From the IMG/VR virus record IMGVR_UViG_2690315994_000024: a DNA stretch of 10,575 nucleotides; one strand, given 5' to 3'. The notes beneath the pieces were generated by a model. It ran no database searches. It was not told where the DNA came from and was given only the letters and a program-made list of their open reading frames with translations. Of the stretch, positions 1 through 10,575 are shown in pieces; position 1 is the first letter of the stretch, and each line of letters begins with the position of its first letter. Source of the stretch: a virus (taxonomy: Duplodnaviria > Heunggongvirae > Uroviricota > Caudoviricetes). The position numbers and the translations under genes are program-made.

Positions 1-987
1 AAAGTCACCTTTACGATCGACTGGTTCAACATCAGCAGCGCGTCCCGGGTAGGGACTATCAAAATTTATAACCTCTCGGCAGATACTGTGAACCGAATTA
101 CCGGGCAGGAGTTTTCGAAAGTGCGTCTGATTGCGGGTTACGACGGTATCGCGCCGGAAGTGTCGGCAAGCGACGTCGGGACAGTGCGGGAAGTTGACGC
201 GGCGGACGTGGGCCAGAGTGATGGTCGCAACTACGGACTGATTTTCAGCGGTGAAATTCGCTACTCGGTTACAGGAAAAGACAGTCCGGTTGATTCCTAC
301 GTCCTGATTCAGGCAGCAGATACTGATCTGGCTTTTGCCACCAGTATAACCTCACAGACGCTGGCTGCCGGTTACACGGTCGCTGATGTAAACCGTGCGC
401 TGATGAAAGACTTCGAAGCCAAAGGCGCGACCGAAGGCCTGACGCCTGAAATGCCTGCTACTGTATTCCCCCGGGGGCGGGTACTCTTTGGCATGACGCG
501 GCATCTAATGGATAACGTAGCCGGGCAATGTGGCGCAACATGGCAATTCGTGGATGGTCAGCGCCAGATGGTGGCGAATAACGAATATGTTCATGAAGCG
601 ATTGTGCTCAACAGCGCTACCGGGCTTATTGGCATGCCGCAGCAGACTATCGGTAACGGCGTAAACGTCCGCGCGCTTATTAATCCGAACATCCGGGTTA
701 ACGGACTTATTCAGCTGGATCAGGCTTCCGTGTATCGTACCGCCTTGTCGAACAACGATATTGCGATGGCTGGTGGTCAGATCACCGACCAGAACACGGA
801 TGGAAATATCACGCTAAGCGGCACCACATCGCAGCCTGCCAGCATCGCAACGGATGGCGTTTATATTGTGCGCGGGATTATGTACACTGGCGACACAAGG
901 GGCCAGGCGTGGTACATGGATATGATGTGCGAAGCGCGCGGTGCGCAGGATATGCCATCCAGCACTGCTTTGCAGAGAGGATTATAG
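1..987 (+). CDS. Phage tail/baseplate structural protein, 5'-truncated by the window edge (hub-like by position upstream of the spike gene)
   Basis: Frame 1 is open from nt 1 with no stop until TAG 985-987, so the gene starts upstream of the window (the track's GTG at 88 is internal). It heads a chain of tightly coupled tail genes. Product is assigned from synteny only; I recognise no motif. Confidence 0.5.
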   Translation, partial: KVTFTIDWFNISSASRVGTIKIYNLSADTVNRITGQEFSKVRLIAGYDGIAPEVSASDVGTVREVDAADVGQSDGRNYGLIFSGEIRYSVTGKDSPVDSYVLIQAADTDLAFATSITSQTLAAGYTVADVNRALMKDFEAKGATEGLTPEMPATVFPRGRVLFGMTRHLMDNVAGQCGATWQFVDGQRQMVANNEYVHEAIVLNSATGLIGMPQQTIGNGVNVRALINPNIRVNGLIQLDQASVYRTALSNNDIAMAGGQITDQNTDGNITLSGTTSQPASIATDGVYIVRGIMYTGDTRGQAWYMDMMCEARGAQDMPSSTALQRGL

Positions 988-989
988 AA

Positions 990-1337
990 ATGAAACGATG
1001 GATATTTTCATTGCTGGCGTTAGTGTCTGTTGGTGTAAGTGCAAACACCATAACGATGCAATGCGGCAACTTTCGTATGGATGCGATCCCTGACTCATTA
1101 TTTAAAATCAATGGCGAAACAGTAACATCCCAAAAAGTAAAAATGTTGGGTAAAGACGGTACAGGCATGCAGATCAAAATGGAGCTGATGCCTGCCAAAG
1201 ATGGCAACAATTATGGGTTCGAGTATATCCATCGACCGGGCACTAAAACGCGTTTCCTGAACGTCCAGTTGTTGCAGAACAGCATGGATGCTCCGAAAAT
1301 TATTGGCTCTTTCCCGTGTAAGAAAGTTGTTGGTTGA
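990..1337 (+). CDS. Small secreted protein of unknown function (predicted Sec signal peptide; two Cys in mature part)
   Basis: ATG 990 lies 9 nt after GAGAGG (974-980) and 2 nt after the upstream stop. N-terminus MKRWIFSLLALVSVGVSA has a basic n-region, hydrophobic core and VSA cleavage motif. The track's longer ORF from 909 overlaps the upstream gene and is unlikely to be the real start. Confidence 0.6.
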   Translation: MKRWIFSLLALVSVGVSANTITMQCGNFRMDAIPDSLFKINGETVTSQKVKMLGKDGTGMQIKMELMPAKDGNNYGFEYIHRPGTKTRFLNVQLLQNSMDAPKIIGSFPCKKVVG

Positions 1338-1344
1338 TTAAGAA

Positions 1345-1899
1345 ATGAGCAAGCGTTCGCCAATAGATACAACAGAAGAACAAAAGGCAATTGAGACTAT
1401 AGGCGCTGATTTTATTTCGTCATATTATAAAGATAGATATGAGGAAGCAAAATCAACATATCGTCGTCTTGAGGACAAAGTTAACTACCTTCTTGCTATT
1501 TTAGCTGTAGAAACCTCTGCTCTACTGGCTGTATTTGGGACTGTTGATTTCAAAAGTGGGCTAAAGAGTAATTGGTTTTTAACATTATCTATACTTTGTG
1601 CATATCTGTGCTTTGTTTGTATTGTTATGTGCTTTTTTTTCCTATGGCGTACTTGGGGACTGAAAGATATACCAAAAATGCCTATTCATAAGCGAAAAGA
1701 AGAGCATGATTTTTTACTTTACGGTGATAAAATTAAAACGCTTAGATACCATATGTTTCAGTATGGTAAAGCTGTTGAATTGATCGAAAGTCTTCATAAA
1801 GAAAAGGCAGTTTATGCTCGTTATCTTTTTGAAGGAATTGCGTTATCTTTCGGTTTTTTCATATTATCGGTTACTTTTCTTTTGATAAATAAGGCATAG
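1345..1899 (+). CDS. Predicted integral membrane protein (about 3 hydrophobic helices), unknown function; AT-rich cargo gene
   Basis: ATG 1345 follows the stop of the previous gene (TGA 1335-1337). Hydrophobic stretches LLAILAVETSALLAVFG, WFLTLSILCAYLCFVCIVMCFFFLW and IALSFGFFILSVTFLLI. Composition is visibly more AT-rich than the flanking tail genes. Confidence 0.6.
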   Translation: MSKRSPIDTTEEQKAIETIGADFISSYYKDRYEEAKSTYRRLEDKVNYLLAILAVETSALLAVFGTVDFKSGLKSNWFLTLSILCAYLCFVCIVMCFFFLWRTWGLKDIPKMPIHKRKEEHDFLLYGDKIKTLRYHMFQYGKAVELIESLHKEKAVYARYLFEGIALSFGFFILSVTFLLINKA

Positions 1900-1902
1900 T
1901 TG

Positions 1903-2073
1903 ATGACAACATCAAATAATGACAACTCACAGCAAAGTAAGCCAACGCAAGCAGAGCAATCCATGGCTGATTATGAAAGCAGTATAATGCTTGAAGTACC
2001 TTTTGATGGATTGGATTACATGACAGAAAGCGTTAAAGAACCTGAGTTGGACAATTTTAAACAGAAAAAATAA
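1903..2073 (+). CDS. Hypothetical small acidic protein (56 aa)
   Basis: ATG 1903 sits 4 nt after the stop of the membrane-protein gene and runs to TAA 2071-2073 (MTTSNNDNSQQSKPTQAEQSMADYESSIMLEVPFDGLDYMTESVKEPELDNFKQKK). It is followed directly by a terminator. Short ORF absent from the track, so low confidence. Confidence 0.3.
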   Translation: MTTSNNDNSQQSKPTQAEQSMADYESSIMLEVPFDGLDYMTESVKEPELDNFKQKK

Positions 2074-2092
2074 ACTTAGAGTTGTTCCTGTA

Positions 2093-2120
2093 GACCCGCC
2101 ACTTGGCGGGTTTTTTGTTT
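2093..2120 (+). terminator. Rho-independent terminator (GC stem CCCGCC/GGCGGG, loop ACTT, then TTTTTTGTTTT)
   Basis: Perfect 6-bp GC stem at 2095-2100 / 2105-2110 with a 4-nt loop, followed by a T-run at 2111-2120. It lies between the cargo ORFs and the spike gene. Confidence 0.65.
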
Positions 2121-2135
2121 TCAGGAGTTTATCAA

Positions 2136-2888
2136 ATGGCCATATCAGACCAGACTCGTAGCGGTGACCTTGCCGAAACATTCAAGTCCGAGCGGGAAAC
2201 AACAAAGAACCAGATCCGCGTCGCCTTGCCTGGCATTATTCAGTCATTCGATCCTGACGCGGTGACGGCGGTTGTGCAGCCAGCTATCCGTTCGGTTGAA
2301 AAGGATAACTACGGTAACCGCATTACCAAAAATTACCCATTGCTGGTGGATGTGCCAGTGGTATTCCCGCGCGGCGGAGGCTGTACGTTGACTTTTCCGG
2401 TAAAAGCCGGGGATGAGTGTCTTGTCGTTTTTGCCGATCGTTGTATTGATTTCTGGTGGCAGAACGGCGGGATACAGGAGCCTGTTGATGACAGAATGCA
2501 TGATTTATCGGATGCGTTTTGTATTGTCGGTCCCCAGTCGCAGGCGAGGAAGATTAGCGGTATTAATACCAGTGCCACACAGTTGCGTAGTGACGACGGC
2601 AGCACCTATTTTGAGCTTAATCCTGATACCAGGAAAATTAAAATTGTCGCTCCGGGTGGTCTTGATGTGGTTGCCCCTCTGGCTGATTTTTCTGAGAAAG
2701 TAACCATTCATGGCCTGTTAACCTGGATGGGTGGCATGGTGGGGTCTGTGGTTTCTGGTGTGGCTTCAAAAATCACTGGTGCTGTTGAGTTTTTGGGTAG
2801 CGTGAAGGCTAACGGCAAGCCAATCGATGATACGCACACTCATGGTGGTGTTCAGCGCGGTGGAAGCAATACCGACGGAGTAAACTGA
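2136..2888 (+). CDS. Baseplate spike / baseplate assembly protein V-like (P2 gpV / Mu gp45 family)
   Basis: ATG 2136 is preceded by AGGAG (2123-2127). The track's start at 2103 is TTG inside the terminator hairpin. C-terminal THTHGG...GGSNTDG resembles the His-rich apex motif I recall from P2 gpV. Position immediately upstream of W/J/I-like genes fits. Confidence 0.8.
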   Translation: MAISDQTRSGDLAETFKSERETTKNQIRVALPGIIQSFDPDAVTAVVQPAIRSVEKDNYGNRITKNYPLLVDVPVVFPRGGGCTLTFPVKAGDECLVVFADRCIDFWWQNGGIQEPVDDRMHDLSDAFCIVGPQSQARKISGINTSATQLRSDDGSTYFELNPDTRKIKIVAPGGLDVVAPLADFSEKVTIHGLLTWMGGMVGSVVSGVASKITGAVEFLGSVKANGKPIDDTHTHGGVQRGGSNTDGVN

Positions 2889-3241
2889 TGCGATACAGAC
2901 GTGAAGACGCCGATGGCGATTACACCTTTGGCAGCGGTGATGACACCTGGCTGATTAACTCACCGGAGGCCGTGGCGCAGGCGGTAAAAACGCGATTCGA
3001 ATTGTGGTATGGCCAATGGTTTCTCGACACCACCGAGGGGACTCCGTGGATCCAGTCCGTACTCGGTAAGCAGAAGCCGGAAACCTACAACCTGGCGATC
3101 CGTAAGCGCATCCTCGAAACGCAGGGCGTTAAATCAATCCTCTCTTTCAATACGACGGTGGATACCACGACCCGACGTGTCATGTTTTCCGCTGAAATCG
3201 ACACTCTTTATGGAATAACGACTGTTACATCGGAGGCGTAA
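2888..3241 (+). CDS. Small baseplate protein, gpW / Mu gp46-like by position
   Basis: Start overlaps the upstream stop (TGATG at 2886-2890). 117 aa, sitting between the V-like and J-like genes as in P2 (V-W-J-I-H-G). Assignment is by size and synteny only. Confidence 0.55.
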   Translation: MRYRREDADGDYTFGSGDDTWLINSPEAVAQAVKTRFELWYGQWFLDTTEGTPWIQSVLGKQKPETYNLAIRKRILETQGVKSILSFNTTVDTTTRRVMFSAEIDTLYGITTVTSEA

Positions 3242-4440
3242 TGGCTCTGAACCTTGATTCTCTCGGTTTATCTGCAAAGGTAACCGCGGAGGGGATCAGT
3301 GCGCCTGATTATCAGACGATACTCAGCACCCTGATTAGCTATTTTCAGCAGATTTATGGCAGTGATGCCTACCTCGAACCGGACAGCAAAGACGGCCAGA
3401 TGGTGGCTCTGATGGCGCTGGCGATTCATGATGCCAATAATATGGCGATAACTGTTTACAACTGTTTTTCACCGGCAACCGGCTATGGGGTTGCACTGAC
3501 CAGTAACGTGAAAATAAATGGTATTTCACGTAAAGGCGCGACGAACTCTACGGTTGATTTGCTTCTTACAGGAACTGCCGGAACAACCATCATTAATGGC
3601 AGCGTGAAAGACAGTAATAATGTGATATGGCGTTTGCCTGCTTCAGTGGTGGTCGGCGTGGATGGTACAGTGATGGTGACCGCAATATGTTCCGTCAGTG
3701 GTGCAGTGGCGGCGCTGGCTGGAACTATCACTGAAATTAATACACCAACCCGTGGCTGGGTTTCGGTAACCAATCCTGCTGCAGCCACTGTGGGCACTCC
3801 GGCAGAAACTGATGCGGAGTTACGTATCCGTCAGTCGCAAAGTGTTGCGTTGCCATCAATAACCCCATTTGAAGCACTGGATGGTGCTGTTTCTAATGTT
3901 GCCGGTGTAACCCGCCACAAACTCTATGAAAACGATACTGGTTCGGAGGACGGTAACGGGTTACCGCCACACTCTGTTGCTGTAATTGTGGATGGCGGTG
4001 ATGTGACGGATATTGCTCAGGCTATCAGAGGGAATAAAGGCCAGGGGACATCCACTCACGGTACAACATCCGTTACGGTTCCGGATAAATACGGCAATCC
4101 CCATGTAATCAAATTCTCGCGCTCTAGTGATGTGCCTGTTTATGCCCGGATTAAATTAAAAGTTTTTACGGGTTATACCTCACAGATAGGGCAGCAGATC
4201 CAGCAGGCTATTTCCGACTATATCAATAGTCTGATGATTGGTGATTCGGTCCTTTTAAGTCGCATTTACTCACCGGCGAATCTTGGCGTGGTGAGTGGCG
4301 GGAATGCACGCTATTACGATATTCAGGAACTGACGATTGGGAAATCCCCGGGGGCTTTGTCGTCATCAAACATTGATATCAGATACAACGAATCTGCGTC
4401 CTGTACACCGGAAAATATCGTTATAACGGTGGAGTCATGA
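3241..4440 (+). CDS. Baseplate J-like protein (P2 gpJ / Mu gp47 family)
   Basis: Start overlaps the upstream stop (TAATG at 3239-3243) with GGAGG at 3233-3237. 399 aa in the expected position between W-like and I-like genes. Confidence 0.75.
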   Translation: MALNLDSLGLSAKVTAEGISAPDYQTILSTLISYFQQIYGSDAYLEPDSKDGQMVALMALAIHDANNMAITVYNCFSPATGYGVALTSNVKINGISRKGATNSTVDLLLTGTAGTTIINGSVKDSNNVIWRLPASVVVGVDGTVMVTAICSVSGAVAALAGTITEINTPTRGWVSVTNPAAATVGTPAETDAELRIRQSQSVALPSITPFEALDGAVSNVAGVTRHKLYENDTGSEDGNGLPPHSVAVIVDGGDVTDIAQAIRGNKGQGTSTHGTTSVTVPDKYGNPHVIKFSRSSDVPVYARIKLKVFTGYTSQIGQQIQQAISDYINSLMIGDSVLLSRIYSPANLGVVSGGNARYYDIQELTIGKSPGALSSSNIDIRYNESASCTPENIVITVES

Positions 4441-5117
4441 GCAAATATACCGAACTAATCACGAACTACCACGCCACCAAACCTAAATTTCTTGCACATG
4501 TTGATCTGATGACCCGGCCGCTTATTGATGTTGCGGCGGCCACCAGAGGGCTGATTACTGCATTTGATATTGACTCTGCGGTTGGTGTGCAACTTGACAT
4601 TCTGGGATTGTGGATCGGACGTAGCCGTGTTGTCAGCCAGCCTATCTCAGGTGTCTATTTCAGCTGGGATACCGACGGGCTTGGATATGATCAGGGTGTA
4701 TGGCAGGGGCCATACGATCCTGATTCCGGATACATGTACCTCAGCGATGAAACTTATCGTGTCATCCTTAAAGCGAAGATTGCGATTAATAACTGGGACG
4801 GACGGAATGATTCGCTTCCAGCAATTCTTGACACTGCAACAGCAGGATCCGGGCTGCGAATGCAGATAGTCGATAACCAGGACATGACGATATCGGTCTG
4901 GGTCTTTCCTGATACTGATATTTCAGATGTATCGCGTGAGTTAATTGCGGCAATTAAACAGGGGTATCTAACAGTAAAAGCCGCCGGGGTATGGGCGGGG
5001 GGTATTGAAACACCTTCGGTGGAAACTCCATCGGAAGGCTCTAAATTTTTTGGTTTTGATATGGATAACGAATTCATCAGTGGTTTTGATGTAGGGGCAT
5101 GGGGAGTATTACTCTGA
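4437..5117 (+). CDS. Tail protein I-like (P2 gpI / Mu gp48 / e14 YmfQ-type, DUF2313-like)
   Basis: ATGA overlap with the upstream gene at 4437-4440. 226 aa, immediately upstream of the tail-fibre gene as in P2/Mu/e14. Confidence 0.65.
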
Positions 5118-5962
5118 TGGCGAAAAATGACTTTAAAGCGTTTGCAACTGATCGAAATGCCAATGTTATGTCGCAGGAGGAATGGGAAGCGTTGCCTGCG
5201 CTTATATCCGGATTTACAGCAGGGAAAGCATCCAGTGCGCAAGTCAATAAGGTTATTCGGCAGGCCAGCTTTATTGCTGCAGCTCTGGCCCAGTTTGTAA
5301 GTGATAAAACGCAACGGGATGTGCTTGATAATGGTGATCTGCCCGGTTTTGTTGAATTGCTGGGATCGGGGTTTGCTGTTGAATACCTGAGCCGCAAGAA
5401 TCCGTTTGGTGATATCAAATCGGATGGCACGGTGAAAACGGCTCTCGAAAACCTTGGTTTGGGAGAAGGTTCGGCATTACCCGTTGGGGTGCCTGTTCCG
5501 TGGCCTTCAGCCACTCCGCCAACAGGCTGGCTGAAATGCAATGGTGCGGCTTTTTCTGCTGAAGAATACCCGGAACTGGCAAAGGCTTACCCGACTAATA
5601 AATTGCCTGATTTACGCGGTGAATTTATTCGTGGCTGGGATGACGGTCGCGGGATTGATTCTGGTCGTACTTTGCTTAATTGGCAGCCACACACAATTTT
5701 GGACCATGCACACTATATGGAATTATGGACAGGGGACGGACTCGCCGCAGGAAGTGCACGGGAAGGAGTAAATCCAGGAATACTGGCTACATACGGTGAC
5801 GGGGGAATAGTTAAAACAGACGAACCCGGTCTTAGGGTGCCTTCCTCACTACGAGCTATTAGCTCCCGTAGTGTAAAACGTTTTGGTGAAATTAGTGGAA
5901 AGGTAGGTACAGAAACTCGTCCTCGTAACATCGCTTTTAATTATATTGTGAGGGCCGCATGA
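5117..5962 (+). CDS. Tail fibre protein: constant N-terminal part (Sc) fused at crossover site A to variable C-terminal domain Sv1
   Basis: ATG 5117 overlaps the upstream stop (TGATG) with GGGGAG 10 nt upstream, and is preferred over the track's ATG 5099. C-terminal part has a tail-collar-like motif ([21 protein letters not shown]...[17 protein letters not shown]). Crossover site lies in-frame at codons LGLGE. Confidence 0.85.
5442..5467 (+). other. Invertase crossover site A (hix/gix-like, 12-2-12): CTCTCGAAAACC TT GGTTTGGGAGAA
   Basis: Two imperfectly inverted 12-bp half-sites flank a 2-bp TT core. It resembles hixL (TTCTTGAAAACC AA GGTTTTTGATAA) as I recall it. It sits exactly at the Sc/Sv boundary of the tail-fibre gene, where sequence identity with the inverted Sv1 copy begins. 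Confidence 0.75.
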
Positions 5963-6052
5963 TGAATAAAGTTATCTTAAATAACGAACTCATTGCCATA
6001 AAAGCGGGAGACATTATCATTTATAATTATGATGGTGAAACGCGGGAATATA
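5454..6052 (+). repeat. Inverted repeat P, left copy (Sv1 variable domain plus first 31 codons of tfa1); reverse complement of 8303-8901
   Basis: Translations are identical in several frames on both strands (e.g. track ORFs 5541-5771 and 8584-8814; 5713-5931 and 8424-8642). Nucleotides were spot-checked at 5941-5970 against 8381-8410. Coordinates sum to 14355. Confidence 0.85.
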
Positions 6053-6066
6053 GACTCAATAATTAA
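5959..6066 (+). pseudogene. Truncated tail fibre assembly gene tfa1' (first 31 codons intact, then 4 foreign codons and stop)
   Basis: ATGA overlap with the tail-fibre stop at 5959-5962. [31 protein letters not shown] is identical to the N-terminus of the full-length 201-aa tfa1 on the minus strand (7791-8396), then diverges at 6052/6053 into RLNN-stop. Confidence 0.7.
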
Positions 6067-6343
6067 CATATACACATATTCACGCTCATTAATACAATCA
6101 TTTAAAGGAAACAACAAACTCATTGAGGATTATGAAAAAATCCTTATTGGCATGGCAGACAATAACAAAGATAAAACCATGTATAAGAGATTACATGATG
6201 CAAAAATAAATGTAATGGTAGATTATGCTCAAGGGATAAAAAATATTGATGCAGAGCTAAGAGATGCAGTCAATAAGGGATTCGACATTATCGACCAAGA
6301 AGTAAAGTCACTACAAATGAAATTAAACAAATTAGCTTCATAG
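6053..6343 (+). pseudogene. C-terminal fragment (about 97 codons) of the downstream cargo gene X, lacking its N-terminal half
   Basis: From DSIINIYTYSRSL... to the stop it is identical to the C-terminal part of the 215-aa ORF at 9603-10250 (-). The first 8 codons of the track ORF 6029-6343 are junction read-through. Confidence 0.7.
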
Positions 6344-6390
6344 AATGCTCCACTCCCTGTTCAATATTTTTACAAGCTTATCAGCCAACC

Positions 6391-6419
6391 GCAGCACGTT
6401 CTTGCATACGACGTGCTAC
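6391..6419. terminator. Hairpin between convergent X' and invertase copy 1 (possible bidirectional terminator)
   Basis: Stem AGCACGT (6393-6399) pairs with ACGTGCT (6411-6417) around an 11-nt loop. There is no clean T-run, so function is uncertain. Confidence 0.25.
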
Positions 6420-6423
6420 GGTT

Positions 6424-6978
6424 TCATTTATCTCCGACCGGAAACTTCTTATACAGTGTCGATATACCAACATCATAGATGATCGCCACCTTCTGGCGAG
6501 GAACGCCTGATGCAATTAATCGTCCGGCCTGCTCCCATTGTTCTGGTGTAAGTTTGGGGCGACGTCCACCAATTCGTCCCTGTGCGCGAGCTGCTTCCAG
6601 TCCAGCTTTTGTTCGTTCAACAATCAGTTCACGCTCCATTTCAGCCAGGGCACCCATCACATGAAAGAAAAAGCGCCCCATTGGGGTACTGGTATCAATT
6701 GAATCCGTCAGACTACGAAAGTTGATGCCTCGTTCGCGCAACTCCTCCACCAGCACGACAAGATGCCGCATACTGCGCCCCAGTCGGTCCAGTTTCCAGA
6801 CCACCAGCGTGTCACCTGCCGATAATGTCCTGAGCAGCTTTTTCAGTCCTGGTCTGTCGGACTTTGTACCGCTTATCTTGTCTTCAAAAATCAGCTCACA
6901 TCCTGCACAGTTCAGCGCATTACGTTGTAGATCGGTATTCTGGTCATTTGTTGATACACGTACATAGCCAATAAGCAT
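6424..6978 (-). CDS. pin: Site-specific DNA invertase, serine recombinase of the Hin/Gin/Pin/Cin family (copy 1)
   Basis: N-terminus MLIGYVRVSTNDQNTDLQRNAL contains the catalytic Ser in the YVRVSTNDQ motif; core VVWKLDRLGRS and SLTDSIDTSTPMGRFFFHVMGALAEMERELIVERT; C-terminal HTH (IYDVGISTLYKK). 184 aa from the conserved MLIGY start; the track's upstream ATG 7014 adds 12 non-conserved codons. Closest recalled relative is e14 Pin. Confidence 0.9.
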   Translation of the reverse strand: MLIGYVRVSTNDQNTDLQRNALNCAGCELIFEDKISGTKSDRPGLKKLLRTLSAGDTLVVWKLDRLGRSMRHLVVLVEELRERGINFRSLTDSIDTSTPMGRFFFHVMGALAEMERELIVERTKAGLEAARAQGRIGGRRPKLTPEQWEQAGRLIASGVPRQKVAIIYDVGISTLYKKFPVGDK

Positions 6979-7032
6979 GTTAAATTCCCCTGGTAAAAGC
7001 AGGAATGATGCCATTTGCTTGTTATTTCTTCA

Positions 7033-7058
7033 TTTTCATAAACGTTGGTTTGGGAGAA
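7033..7058 (+). other. Invertase crossover site B: TTTTCATAAACG TT GGTTTGGGAGAA
   Basis: Shares core and right half-site with site A and is the exact reverse complement of site C. It lies 20 bp upstream of the invertase copy 1 start, at the in-frame start of the Sv2 cassette. Confidence 0.75.
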
Positions 7059-7379
7059 GCGGCAAAACGGAATGTGGGAACTGGGGAAAATCAGATACCT
7101 GATATGTCATCATATGCATCAGGTTCAGGCTGGCGAAAAATGCCAGATGGTTCAATTGAACAGTGGGGACGAATTAGTTTTCCTAGTGAACACGGGCCTG
7201 TATCCGCCAATGTTTCATTCCCGATTCCATTTACACAGACACCGGGCATTGTAATTGTGTGCGATGGTGGTTTCGGGGGGGGGAATATGTGGGGGGCGAC
7301 CAACTGGAGCACTACCGGCTTCATAGCTCACTGCAATTATGGTCTTGAAGGTGGTGCGTTTTTCGCTAAGGGCTGGTAA
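7059..7379 (+). CDS. Silent tail-fibre variable cassette Sv2 (alternative C-terminal domain, about 107 codons), not fused to Sc in this isomer
   Basis: Reading frame continues in-frame from the GLGE codons of site B to TAA 7377-7379. Upstream codons [14 protein letters not shown] are antisense read-through of the invertase 5' region, not a real start. Contains a G9 tract at 7275-7283. Confidence 0.65.
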
Positions 7380-7819: not shown

Positions 7820-8396
7820 CATCCGGCGCTGTGCTGGTATCTGTTGCCGTCACCGCGTCAATGTAATCCAGCACAGCGTTAAGGCGGGTTGTTTCTGCCT
7901 GCGTCAGCTTCCGTCCGGCCTGTAATTTCAGTTGAATCAGACTGATGGAGGCCATTGCAGTATCAATCAGCGACTGGCGCTGTGCTTCTGCTGCATCTAC
8001 TGCTGCGCCGTGCTGTGCCTCGGTATCTGTCACCCATTTCTCACCATCCCATTTATCATATGGCGTTAATGGGGCGATAGTGGTTGTATTTTCAGGGTAA
8101 TCACCCGGAACTGTGATTTCTTTGGTATCTCCCGTTTCGGTACTATAGACAACTTCACCGCGATGGTCTGGCACATATTCCCATGAATTTAAATCTACAG
8201 AGCGACAGATTGCATAACCAGCTTTATGTGTACCTGGTGCATCCAAACAGGAACATGCCGGTATACCGACGCCGACAGCGAGATATTCAGTTGATGTAGA
8301 AATATATTCCCGCGTTTCACCATCATAATTATAAATGATAATGTCTCCCGCTTTTATGGCAATGAGTTCGTTATTTAAGATAACTTTATTCATCAT
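7791..8396 (-). CDS. Tail fibre assembly protein Tfa1, full length (201 aa), partner of Sv1
   Basis: Start overlaps the Sv1 stop on the minus strand. Its first 31 codons are duplicated in tfa1' at 5959-6051. Confidence 0.8.
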   Translation of the reverse strand: MMNKVILNNELIAIKAGDIIIYNYDGETREYISTSTEYLAVGVGIPACSCLDAPGTHKAGYAICRSVDLNSWEYVPDHRGEVVYSTETGDTKEITVPGDYPENTTTIAPLTPYDKWDGEKWVTDTEAQHGAAVDAAEAQRQSLIDTAMASISLIQLKLQAGRKLTQAETTRLNAVLDYIDAVTATDTSTAPDVIWPELPEA

Positions 8397-8901
8397 GCGG
8401 CCCTCACAATATAATTAAAAGCGATGTTACGAGGACGAGTTTCTGTACCTACCTTTCCACTAATTTCACCAAAACGTTTTACACTACGGGAGCTAATAGC
8501 TCGTAGTGAGGAAGGCACCCTAAGACCGGGTTCGTCTGTTTTAACTATTCCCCCGTCACCGTATGTAGCCAGTATTCCTGGATTTACTCCTTCCCGTGCA
8601 CTTCCTGCGGCGAGTCCGTCCCCTGTCCATAATTCCATATAGTGTGCATGGTCCAAAATTGTGTGTGGCTGCCAATTAAGCAAAGTACGACCAGAATCAA
8701 TCCCGCGACCGTCATCCCAGCCACGAATAAATTCACCGCGTAAATCAGGCAATTTATTAGTCGGGTAAGCCTTTGCCAGTTCCGGGTATTCTTCAGCAGA
8801 AAAAGCCGCACCATTGCATTTCAGCCAGCCTGTTGGCGGAGTGGCTGAAGGCCACGGAACAGGCACCCCAACGGGTAATGCCGAACCTTCTCCCAAACCA
8901 A
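8303..8901 (-). repeat. Inverted repeat P, right copy
   Basis: Reverse complement of 5454-6052; see left copy. Confidence 0.85.
8393..8887 (-). CDS. Silent tail-fibre variable cassette Sv1 (second, inverted copy of the domain currently fused to Sc)
   Basis: From [25 protein letters not shown]... to the stop it is identical to the C-terminal part of the expressed tail fibre. The track's N-terminal [14 protein letters not shown] is read-through into the invertase-proximal repeat. Confidence 0.75.
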   Translation of the reverse strand, partial: GSALPVGVPVPWPSATPPTGWLKCNGAAFSAEEYPELAKAYPTNKLPDLRGEFIRGWDDGRGIDSGRTLLNWQPHTILDHAHYMELWTGDGLAAGSAREGVNPGILATYGDGGIVKTDEPGLRVPSSLRAISSRSVKRFGEISGKVGTETRPRNIAFNYIVRAA

Positions 8902-8913
8902 CGTTTATGAAAA
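8888..8913 (-). other. Invertase crossover site C (reverse complement of site B): + strand TTCTCCCAAACC AA CGTTTATGAAAA
   Basis: Lies between the Sv1 cassette and invertase copy 2. Both repeat families (P and Q) meet and overlap precisely at this site. Confidence 0.75.
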
Positions 8914-8967
8914 TGAAGAAATAACAAGCAAATGGCATCATTCCTGCTTTTACCAGGGGAATTTAAC

Positions 8968-9522
8968 ATGCTTATTGGCTATGTACGTGTATCAACAAAT
9001 GACCAGAATACCGATCTACAACGTAATGCGCTGAACTGTGCAGGATGTGAGCTGATTTTTGAAGACAAGATAAGCGGTACAAAGTCCGACAGACCAGGAC
9101 TGAAAAAGCTGCTCAGGACATTATCGGCAGGTGACACGCTGGTGGTCTGGAAACTGGACCGACTGGGGCGCAGTATGCGGCATCTTGTCGTGCTGGTGGA
9201 GGAGTTGCGCGAACGAGGCATCAACTTTCGTAGTCTGACGGATTCAATTGATACCAGTACCCCAATGGGGCGCTTTTTCTTTCATGTGATGGGTGCCCTG
9301 GCTGAAATGGAGCGTGAACTGATTGTTGAACGAACAAAAGCTGGACTGGAAGCAGCTCGCGCACAGGGACGAATTGGTGGACGTCGCCCCAAACTTACAC
9401 CAGAACAATGGGAGCAGGCCGGACGATTAATTGCATCAGGCGTTCCTCGCCAGAAGGTGGCGATCATCTATGATGTTGGTATATCGACACTGTATAAGAA
9501 GTTTCCGGTCGGAGATAAATGA
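8968..9522 (+). CDS. pin: Site-specific DNA invertase, Hin/Gin/Pin/Cin family (copy 2, identical to copy 1)
   Basis: Same protein as 6424-6978. ATG 8968 is preceded by AGGGGA. This copy is in the canonical position, immediately outside the right crossover site. Confidence 0.9.
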   Translation: MLIGYVRVSTNDQNTDLQRNALNCAGCELIFEDKISGTKSDRPGLKKLLRTLSAGDTLVVWKLDRLGRSMRHLVVLVEELRERGINFRSLTDSIDTSTPMGRFFFHVMGALAEMERELIVERTKAGLEAARAQGRIGGRRPKLTPEQWEQAGRLIASGVPRQKVAIIYDVGISTLYKKFPVGDK

Positions 9523-9526
9523 AACC

Positions 9527-9555
9527 GTAGCACGTCGTATGCAAGAACGTGCTGC
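9527..9555. terminator. Hairpin between convergent invertase copy 2 and X (mirror of 6391-6419)
   Basis: Stem AGCACGT (9529-9535) pairs with ACGTGCT (9547-9553) around an 11-nt loop, starting 5 nt after the invertase stop. No clean T-run. Confidence 0.25.
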
Positions 9556-9602
9556 GGTTGGCTGATAAGCTTGTAAAAATATTGAACAGGGAGTGGAGCA
9601 TT

Positions 9603-10250
9603 CTATGAAGCTAATTTGTTTAATTTCATTTGTAGTGACTTTACTTCTTGGTCGATAATGTCGAATCCCTTATTGACTGCATCTCTTAGCTCTGCATCAA
9701 TATTTTTTATCCCTTGAGCATAATCTACCATTACATTTATTTTTGCATCATGTAATCTCTTATACATGGTTTTATCTTTGTTATTGTCTGCCATGCCAAT
9801 AAGGATTTTTTCATAATCCTCAATGAGTTTGTTGTTTCCTTTAAATGATTGTATTAATGAGCGTGAATATGTGTATATGTTAATTATTGAGTCTCTAGCA
9901 GAATCATTTAGTTTTGCAATGACATTCGCATTTTGCTCATAGAATGTGAAATTATCATCCCCTACAGGGAATGTGAGAATCAACATTTGTCCCGGTTTTA
10001 TATTATCAATGTGTGTTTTCATCCTTTTATTATATAAATTGATTAGGGTGAAAACTTCTCCCTTAACTCCTTTTAATACTGAAAGTTGTAATTCAAGGGA
10101 TTCTCTTTCTGTCTCTACTTTAGACAGCTTAGCTTGTTGGGTCACTCCTTTTAGGGTAAACCATCCGCCAATAAGAGTACCAACTAGAGCTGTGAGGGAG
10201 GAGGATAACCATCCAGGTATGCTATTTAAAAGATTACTAAATTCACTCAT
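9603..10250 (-). CDS. Cargo protein X: N-terminal transmembrane helix followed by a charged, probably coiled-coil region; unknown function
   Basis: 215-aa ORF in AT-rich DNA. N-terminus IPGWLSSSLTALVGTLIGGWFTL is hydrophobic; the rest is K/E/D/L-rich. Convergent with the invertase. Confidence 0.6.
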   Translation of the reverse strand: MSEFSNLLNSIPGWLSSSLTALVGTLIGGWFTLKGVTQQAKLSKVETERESLELQLSVLKGVKGEVFTLINLYNKRMKTHIDNIKPGQMLILTFPVGDDNFTFYEQNANVIAKLNDSARDSIINIYTYSRSLIQSFKGNNKLIEDYEKILIGMADNNKDKTMYKRLHDAKINVMVDYAQGIKNIDAELRDAVNKGFDIIDQEVKSLQMKLNKLAS

Positions 10251-10308: not shown

Positions 10309-10575
10309 CTACTGGAGAAGGCTACCTGAACTTCGATCTATTCCTGCATCCATATAGTTGATGGTCTTCTGGAGCTCTTCGATTAGGGCAACAGCTTTTG
10401 CTCGAGAAATGCATATTAGTTGATCCGGAAATTCTTGTAAGGGCCAGTTTGGTATACAGGCCATGTTATCAGTGAAGGATGCAGACAAGTAAACTTCATT
10501 GGTAACCAGAGAATAGCTTACCTCAAAATTGGTGAGTTCCAGCAAACTGCTAACGTTTGACTCTTTTCTGCGCAT
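10309..10575 (-). CDS. Hypothetical protein upstream of X in the same orientation, possibly 5'-truncated by the window edge
   Basis: The ORF reaches the last base of the window (ATG is the final codon on the minus strand), so the true start may lie outside. AT-rich; no recognisable motif. Confidence 0.4.
   Translation of the reverse strand: MRRKESNVSSLLELTNFEVSYSLVTNEVYLSASFTDNMACIPNWPLQEFPDQLICISRAKAVALIEELQKTINYMDAGIDRSSGSLLQ

Follow-up and report, generated by a model that had tools for sequence, protein, structure and literature searches.

Cargo genes in phage late operons

A moron, in the sense of Juhala et al. (2000), is an autonomous accessory transcription unit in a phage genome that is expressed from the repressed prophage. 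Precedents for defence morons lodged inside late operons are HK97 gp15, the Z/fun hotspot of P2 and Tab of the Pseudomonas phage JBD26, and cargo hotspots in late and tail operons are already well established. The locus described here is of that kind. It lies in a 10,575-nucleotide stretch of DNA from a tailed phage (Caudoviricetes; IMG/VR record IMGVR_UViG_2690315994_000024), hereafter the window, in which three open reading frames (ORFs A, B and C) stand between the baseplate hub gene and the gene for the membrane-puncturing central spike. The most fitting interpretation is that of a two-layered cargo hotspot within the late (baseplate) operon: a conserved ORF A is followed by a swappable slot that here holds ORF B and ORF C. 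ORF B is, judging by profile comparisons, a remote homologue of the PycTM-type membrane effectors of Pycsar defence. We tentatively read B and C together as an envelope module for phage–phage competition or defence, carried as moron-type cargo, at a likelihood that we place a little short of even.

As at HK97 gp15, P2 Z/fun and JBD26 Tab, accessory genes of deviant base composition sit here between conserved virion genes, the content varies, and a terminator follows the cargo, whose products are often small envelope proteins in phage–phage competition. The present locus differs in its hub–spike position in a SEN34/Brunovirus-like myovirus and in having no detected promoter. It also differs in that the terminator is fixed in the phage backbone and the slot lies behind a lineage-conserved exported protein, ORF A.

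The nearest described relative of ORF B itself is PycTM, an effector described (PMC11224242) as forming pores in the membrane, or disrupting it, once it is activated by cyclic pyrimidines that the cyclase PycC makes. Both are small helical membrane proteins of ∼160–185 amino acids (aa), and a bridging group of proteins links them by a full-length profile relation. Unlike PycTM, ORF B has no PycC neighbour, is partnered by a 56-aa acidic protein and is encoded among the virion gene modules of prophages.

Two further systems offer parallels in layout. The T4 proteins Imm and Sp and the P22 protein SieA are superinfection-exclusion proteins, and Sp inhibits the cell-wall-degrading enzyme of the incoming tail. 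An inner-membrane protein together with a periplasmic or envelope protein is also the cellular layout of ORF B and ORF A; the analogy is one of layout only, and no sequence or fold similarity was detected. SpoIISA and SpoIISB likewise comprise a membrane protein with three transmembrane (TM) helices followed by the gene for a hydrophilic partner of ∼56 aa. In ORF B, however, the third TM helix is C-terminal and the genomic context differs, and the profile match between the SpoIISA chain 3o6q_A and the ORF B family (E = 0.059) is not significant and was rejected as evidence.

A variable slot between the hub and spike genes

Between the hub stop codon (987) and the spike ATG (2136) lie three co-oriented ORFs, separated by gaps of 2–7 nt and tightly packed 3′ of the hub gene. 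The features of this region are:

1-987, + strand: baseplate hub gene, 3′ part (phrog_196 baseplate hub, E = 6e-68; Pfam E217_GP41 below threshold); conserved left flank
990-1337, + strand: ORF A, 115 aa, STY1065/STY2022 family, phrog_3443; starts 2 nt 3′ of the hub stop codon; lineage-conserved and outside the variable cassette
1338-2091, + strand: variable cargo segment (ORF B and ORF C), delimited by junction alignments; unrelated genes stand here instead in relatives
1345-1899, + strand: ORF B, 184 aa, phrog_18554; predicted inner-membrane protein with three TM helices; G+C content (GC) 0.34, GC at third codon positions (GC3) 0.25
1903-2073, + strand: ORF C, 56 aa, phrog_18231; acidic, isoelectric point (pI) 4.2; ATG 3 nt 3′ of the ORF B stop codon
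2092-2116, + strand: intrinsic terminator, stem AGACCCGCC/GGCGGGTTT, loop ACTT, then a T run; 20 nt 5′ of the spike start codon
2136-2888, + strand: membrane-puncturing central spike gene (Pfam PF18352 N-terminal domain, E = 2.4e-44, plus Apex motif; RefSeq annotation); conserved right flank

A first-pass annotation, made by a model from the letters alone, had placed a signal-peptide protein, a multi-pass membrane protein and a small acidic protein between hub and spike, and the ORF calls, hydropathy and pI agree with it. It had described all three genes as markedly AT-rich, and named a uniform base composition as the result that would tell against its view. By calculation, the drop is real: GC falls from ∼0.54 to 0.33 over positions 1350-2100. 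The structural genes have GC of 0.49–0.55 and GC3 of 0.44–0.63; against these stand GC values of 0.43, 0.34 and 0.36 and GC3 values of 0.49, 0.25 and 0.33 for ORFs A, B and C, respectively. The description thus fits B and C and not ORF A, whose deviation is mild. As the shift of B and C extends to synonymous sites, it is not just an amino-acid effect. The deviant composition of B and C recurs in Salmonella and Serratia.

Comparison with relatives of other content defines the exchangeable unit. Their DNA is homologous to the window from position 1 to ∼1327-1338, the end of ORF A, at 86–89% identity, and homology resumes at 2094-2105, just 5′ of or inside the terminator stem. Since homology ends at the ORF A stop codon and returns at the terminator, the exchangeable segment (∼1338-2091) consists only of B and C. 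The proposal that all three ORFs form one insertion therefore does not hold: the ORF A family is lineage-wide and only B and C vary. Among 5,426 complete Escherichia coli genomes, ∼290–350 match the flanks and only ∼21 carry the whole arrangement including B and C.

The strong intrinsic terminator noticed after the ORFs is real. Its 9-bp stem at 2092-2113 has a folding energy of −17.2 kcal/mol (z = −3.55), and none of 200 shuffled sequences was as stable. It had also been credited to the cargo as its own terminator, which the comparison contradicts, as DNA homology to relatives with other cargo resumes at ∼2092, just 5′ of the stem. Of 10 relatives, 8 have the same element (ACCCGCC-loop-GGCGGGTTTTTTG) 5′ of their spike gene irrespective of the cargo, and it is found in Salmonella and Serratia as well. 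Being common to relatives with unrelated cargo, it is a backbone element.

At least eight unrelated alternatives fill the slot. All are AT-rich (GC 0.36–0.44), and most are membrane-anchored or exported:

170-aa soluble protein
79-aa two-TM DUF4282 protein
190-aa DUF2335 membrane protein
138-aa N-terminally anchored protein (SEN34_21)
148-aa anchored Cys-rich protein (Mulock)
266-aa soluble protein (YP3)
121-aa signal-peptide protein (E. coli strain P4, locus L020, 1708-2073)
426-bp non-coding remnant

No empty slot was found: a synthetic query joining the 3′ end of ORF A to the terminator was nowhere matched in one piece in the E. coli genomes sampled. The statement that structural operons of P2- and Mu-type phages have no genes at this position is right for P2 and Mu and wrong for the present phage group, in which the slot is always occupied. 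The 121-aa filling of strain P4 has a 'KCG' motif after its signal and a C-terminal cysteine, a layout that recalls ORF A; judged by layout, it may descend from a tandem duplication of ORF A and have diverged since.

ORFs B and C travel as a pair

None of the three ORFs belongs to a Pfam or NCBIfam family, and the only PHROGs matched are of no assigned function, in keeping with the first-pass annotation, which recognised no family. A literature search returned nothing on the ORF A family, ORF B or ORF C, and nothing relevant on STY1065/66/67 or on orphan Pycsar effectors in prophages. The close family of ORF B comprises 22 clusters, all enterobacterial. A tblastn search of 50,697 phage records gave no ORF B match; the module is thus missing from phage isolates with sequenced genomes, and its known occurrences are confined to prophages and metagenomes.

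Homologues of B occupy the same slot in Salmonella prophages (53% identity), Klebsiella aerogenes (55%), metagenomic contigs (58%) and Serratia (40%). A recent foreign insertion of B and C was considered and rejected on the strength of these same-slot orthologues at 40–58% identity across genera, the Serratia B having diverged as far as the structural genes around it. In Salmonella, ORFs A, B and C (41–54%) have diverged faster than the structural genes (67–91%).

In all six divergent contexts compared, which include Salmonella, Serratia, K. aerogenes and two metagenomic loci, B is followed by a small acidic ORF C of 52–64 aa. The start of C lies between 4 nt before and 14 nt after the stop codon of B, and its homologues share the motif YE..I...VPFG.L...ES. 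So constant a linkage fits coupled translation and a functional pair. The pair can also have company. A metagenomic Mu-like prophage (Tail_tube, Gp41_Mu, DNA_circ_N) carries a distant ORF A-like exported protein together with B, C and a different terminator at another position, and the trio can thus move as a unit, in partial support of the earlier three-gene view.

Degraded prophages keep the block as well. The Salmonella relatives L005 and L007 are remnants in which RecT is followed almost at once by the ORF A-B(-C)-spike segment, so the A-B-C block survives prophage decay. Across the Salmonella relatives L005-L008, the type III effector gene sopE (SopE_GEF) or pagK lies directly 3′ of the tail fibre assembly gene, at ∼11.9–12.5 kb of each locus.

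ORF B resembles PycTM-type membrane effectors

The hydrophobic helices of ORF B span residues ∼46–66, 78–101 and 161–181, and the loop at 102–160 carries a net charge of +5 and is predicted to be cytoplasmic. From hydropathy and charge, we infer a three-TM topology with a cytoplasmic N-terminus. An AlphaFold2 model (predicted local distance difference test score, pLDDT, 79.5) has helices at 9–66, 77–104, 118–126 and 129–183. In this fold a long N-terminal helix, bearing the motif YYKDRYEEAKxxYRRLEDK, runs into TM1; next come TM2 and a pair of cytoplasmic helices, and the last element is a long helix whose end forms TM3. Residues E56 and S58 in TM1 are invariant across the enterobacterial B family (alignment A3) and not in remote relatives. 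The membrane-embedded acidic E56 hints at ion conduction or helix–helix pairing.

Ten of 17 members of the ORF B family match the PycTM models of PADLOC, the best at 1.6e-5; for ORF B itself, the match has E = 9e-4. A profile search of 1.84 billion representative proteins retrieved 81 at E ≤ 1e-3 with nearly full-length alignment to the ORF B family. PycTM models match 20 of the 72 remote relatives scanned (best 1e-8), and a few of these relatives match CBASS 2TM, CARF-TM or SLATT effector models. The bridging group aligns with the ORF B family over its full length in hhalign (99.3%, E = 2e-20, 162 columns), and proteins of this group match PycTM models along their whole length at 1e-4 to 1e-5. 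A group from Methanobrevibacter proviruses aligns with the ORF B family at 94.8% (E = 5e-8). The groups have in common a soluble motif before TM1 (YYKDRYEEAK..YRRLEDK, YFKERYEEEN..FNHIESK and IQHRYEEEER..FQTVDGK), so the similarity is not just one of hydrophobic composition. Four ORF B homologues carry a precomputed PF18967 label, which probably denotes the PycTM family. Profile searches of PDB sequences with the B and A families found nothing significant.

What sets ORF B apart from Pycsar effectors is its surroundings. No cyclase gene is present in the window, in the reference prophage described below, or in the Salmonella, Serratia, Klebsiella, metagenomic and archaeal contexts (at least 10 examined). 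With no cyclase adjoining it, ORF B does not qualify as a Pycsar component by operon structure. It may nonetheless work like a PycTM-type membrane effector without a cyclase.

The archaeal relatives (L012-L014; Methanobrevibacter oralis and metagenomic proviruses) broaden the picture. There, the gene (4001-4537) is solitary and lies between a Mu-F-like head morphogenesis gene and an SU10-type major capsid gene, with no cyclase and no ORF C-like gene in these proviruses. Judged by these alignments, the same membrane-protein superfamily recurs as cargo in virion modules across domains. A small ORF that follows the gene of the remote relative P0159 was examined as an ORF C homologue and rejected, being basic and unrelated.

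ORF A is a lineage-conserved, probably exported protein

The ORF A family comprises at least 386 homologue clusters across Enterobacterales (Escherichia, Salmonella, Klebsiella, Raoultella, Serratia, Photorhabdus, Dickeya, Pantoea and others). Newer RefSeq records label it 'STY1065/STY2022 family phage-derived protein'. In every relative examined from E. coli, Salmonella, Klebsiella and Yersinia, the gene lies directly 3′ of the hub gene; it is therefore lineage-conserved rather than sporadic cargo. It holds the same position in all isolated phages of the group, including SEN34, YP3, Mulock and GZ7. Variants on the theme occur. A 296-aa lipoprotein of K. aerogenes carries the A domain fused to its C-terminus, and a different, 224-aa lipoprotein takes the place of ORF A in the Serratia locus.

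ORF A begins with a hydrophobic, signal-like segment (residues 4–23). The family alignment preserves this N-terminus, two invariant cysteines (C25 and C110) and a strongly conserved mature domain, and the AlphaFold2 model (pLDDT 83) is a seven-strand up-and-down barrel. Together, these features suggest an exported, disulphide-bonded small β-barrel protein, probably periplasmic. The modelled barrel resembles that of PliC/MliC, periplasmic lysozyme inhibitors with eight strands in their small β-barrel, but only as a generic small barrel and without support from a sequence motif. ORF A is not a member of the PliC/MliC family by sequence: it has no Pfam or NCBIfam match, and the PDB profile search gave nothing significant. 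Foldseek comparison with viral structures (BFVD) returned only uncharacterised proteins with poor TM-scores.

Because phage tails assemble in the cytoplasm, a protein that is exported and disulphide-bonded would hardly be expected in the virion; the conserved signal-like N-terminus and the two invariant cysteines are the basis for this judgement. The first-pass annotation had allowed that its genes would not be cargo if they proved to be conserved structural components of the phage group. The conservation of ORF A comes close to that, its export features argue against a virion role, and B and C are not conserved in the group.

The prophage setting

The window is a piece of an E. coli prophage. 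A prophage of strain MINF_1D (reference prophage L001) matches it with 99.8% identity over 700-2400 and 98.3% over 1-5673. The MINF_1D prophage has a complete late region, including an antiterminator Q family gene upstream of the late genes. Lysis genes (a lambda-type holin and a GH24 endolysin) are followed by terminase, head and contractile-tail genes. The tail genes run from an SLT-domain tape-measure protein through a Dit-like protein, plug and hub to the hub–spike region; 3′ of it come the membrane-puncturing spike, sheath initiator, baseplate J and DUF2612/Wedge1, and tail fibres with a Pin invertase are last. The nearest sequenced phages are the Escherichia vB_EcoM-606R2 group, Salmonella SEN34 (genus Brunovirus), Yersinia YP3 and Klebsiella Mulock and GZ7. 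The host phage of the region is a SEN34/Brunovirus-like temperate myovirus of Enterobacterales.

The gene to the left of ORF A had been described as a truncated tail/hub-like gene. Biologically it is not truncated: the frame is open from position 1, the cut is the edge of the window, and the hub protein is complete in the reference prophage at 354 aa.

In the window, no match to Rfam was found. A consensus scan for sigma-70-like promoters found two sites in 700-2300 against 3.8 expected by chance, neither positioned 5′ of A, B or C, and no site above chance at the Serratia locus; such a scan is a weak test that would miss promoters deviating from consensus.

Possible roles of the module

How far the locus conforms to the moron concept can be judged feature by feature. 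B and C are replaceable genes between conserved neighbours, which ORF A is not. Their base composition is deviant, and a terminator lies downstream, though it belongs to the backbone. An upstream promoter of their own did not emerge from the consensus scan, itself a weak test. The suggestion of a moron locus for superinfection exclusion or host interaction therefore stands in part. B and C are accessory cargo lodged within the baseplate module, and a role of the moron or superinfection-exclusion type is the interpretation that makes most sense. In the strict sense they do not qualify as a moron, since the scan detected no promoter of their own.

If B and C do serve phage–phage competition or defence, they might act as follows. 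ORF B would insert in the inner membrane with its N-terminus in the cytoplasm and, like its distant PycTM relatives, would compromise membrane integrity or block transfer across the membrane. The acidic ORF C, its translation coupled to that of B, would restrain or gate B. The two, perhaps joined by ORF A in the periplasm, would shut out competing phages or abort their infection, much as envelope modules of the Imm/Sp, SieA and HK97 gp15 type do, and the module would need no cyclic-nucleotide signal from a cognate cyclase. The terminator would stop transcription that has not been antiterminated from entering the spike and wedge genes, and Q-modified late transcription would read through it, as the presence of a Q family gene in the reference prophage suggests. 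Both the defence function and the gating by C are conjecture, and the specific gating model is considerably less certain than a role in competition.

Several observations weigh against this reading. With no promoter above chance 5′ of A, B or C and the genes packed behind the hub gene, expression may be late-lytic only and not occur in lysogens. In Serratia, the divergence of B (40%) keeps step with that of the structural genes (40–62%), which also fits a role in the phage's own life cycle. The direct similarity of ORF B to PycTM is weak (E ∼1e-3 to 1e-5), the current Pfam scan of the ORF B family is empty, and Foldseek of the ORF B model against the PDB found nothing beyond non-specific helical bundles. 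The alternative cargo proteins belong to no known defence family by PADLOC and Pfam; only DUF4282 and DUF2335 were matched.

A rival explanation is that A, B and C are accessory factors of the phage's own lytic cycle, late proteins made together with those of the baseplate and acting on the envelope of the producer cell rather than protecting the lysogen. They might block injection of progeny into lysing cells or debris, tune the timing of lysis, or shield the wall from the tail's lytic transglycosylase until lysis. The lack of a detected promoter, the packing behind the hub in a late operon, the universality of ORF A in the lineage and the parallel divergence of B in Serratia all accord with this. 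However, close relatives whose flanks are more than 90% identical freely swap B and C for unrelated genes, so that no single filling is needed for growth, and so marked a departure in AT content and GC3 is what accessory genes typically show. The prophage has dedicated lysis genes elsewhere, and the likeness of ORF A to PliC/MliC is that of a generic barrel. We consider this explanation unlikely. Lysogenic conversion, in which the envelope proteins alter the host surface, stress tolerance or virulence in the manner of lambda Lom and Bor, seems improbable. It would suit the predicted envelope location of the cargo proteins, the presence of the virulence genes sopE and pagK in the same tail region of Salmonella relatives, and the clinical isolates among the reference strains that carry B and C. 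Yet no protein here is similar to any virulence or fitness factor. The sole remote homology is to membrane effectors of phage-defence systems, and relatives of ORF B occur in archaeal proviruses, where animal virulence is irrelevant.

The conserved pairing of B and C invites comparison with a toxin–antitoxin addiction pair, in which a membrane toxin (B) and a labile acidic antitoxin (C) would stabilise the prophage or the slot. The arrangement, in which translation of a small acidic protein would be coupled to that of the membrane protein ahead of it and the two are kept as a pair, recalls SpoIISA of Bacillus subtilis, a three-TM toxin, with its downstream 56-aa antitoxin SpoIISB. Set against this architecture are the lack of significant homology to any toxin–antitoxin family, the absence of a detected promoter or operator region, the little that chromosomal prophages stand to gain and the replacement of the pair by single genes in close relatives, which make addiction decidedly improbable. 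ORF B could, finally, be a counter-defence protein, an orphan, non-lethal copy of the PycTM type that acts as a decoy, a dominant-negative subunit or a cyclic-pyrimidine sink against Pycsar-like abortive infection, with C as a cofactor. Its homology to the PycTM superfamily, together with the absence of a cyclase from every viral context, speaks for this, as does a position in the late operon that makes lytic expression probable. Phages reportedly carry other orphan defence components as inhibitors (viral cas genes; an orphan antitoxin against DarTG1). The argument is nevertheless pure analogy. A protein made late would miss a system that is set off earlier in infection, the anti-Pycsar strategy that is known, that of Apyc1, is to degrade the nucleotides, and the similarity of ORF B to bona fide PycTM is only remote; we rate counter-defence as very improbable.

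Where the locus might yet prove to be new biology is in its orphan PycTM-like effector, paired with an obligate small acidic protein. A more far-reaching reading, unlikely in our estimate, would make B and C a new cyclase-independent two-gene system built on an orphan PycTM-like effector, moving as swappable cargo in virion modules and having solitary relatives in methanogen proviruses. It would be either a direct-sensing abortive-infection or exclusion device gated by C or a decoy that neutralises host Pycsar-type effectors. ORF A would be added to it as a periplasmic inhibitor of the lytic transglycosylase of the incoming tail. The idea of such an Sp-like inhibitor stems from the PliC/MliC-like barrel of ORF A and the SLT domain of the tape-measure protein.

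Should B and C prove protective against phages, membrane effectors of the PycTM superfamily would be seen to work without a nucleotide-signalling partner, and prophage-encoded defences would gain one more compact two-gene module. The hub–spike slot would then be a place to seek further small envelope-acting defence and counter-defence genes, like the hotspots of P2. For annotation, ORF A is to be treated as a lineage-conserved exported protein rather than cargo, and the terminator as a fixed insulator in the late operon.

The right part of the window

The right part of the window holds two perfect (100%) inverted repeats, one pairing 6049-7059 with 8887-9897 (1011 nt) and the other 5449-6052 with 8303-8906 (604 nt). 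As a result, the pin gene, the C-terminal segment of the tail fibre and the 3′ part of a 215-aa ORF are each present twice in opposite orientation. The features here are:

6424-7014, − strand: pin invertase gene, one copy (the reference prophage has a single pin)
8932-9522, + strand: pin invertase gene, the other copy
9603-10250, − strand: AT-rich 215-aa ORF (GC 0.33, GC3 0.29) with an N-terminal hydrophobic segment, just past pin at the prophage end; partial copy at 6029-6343
10309-10575, − strand: 88-aa ORF in AT-rich DNA, touching the right end of the window; no PADLOC or NCBIfam match

The ends of the repeats fall at sites that resemble Pin crossover sites (TTGGTTTGGGAGAAG at ∼5455 and ∼7045, and its reverse complement at ∼8890). 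The inverted repeats may reflect a genuine rearrangement or duplication, mediated by Pin, of the invertible tail-fibre region; the alternative is that they arose as an artefact when a population of mixed orientation was assembled. The 215-aa ORF has no Pfam, NCBIfam or PADLOC match and may be another cargo or defence candidate, at the junction of prophage and chromosome.

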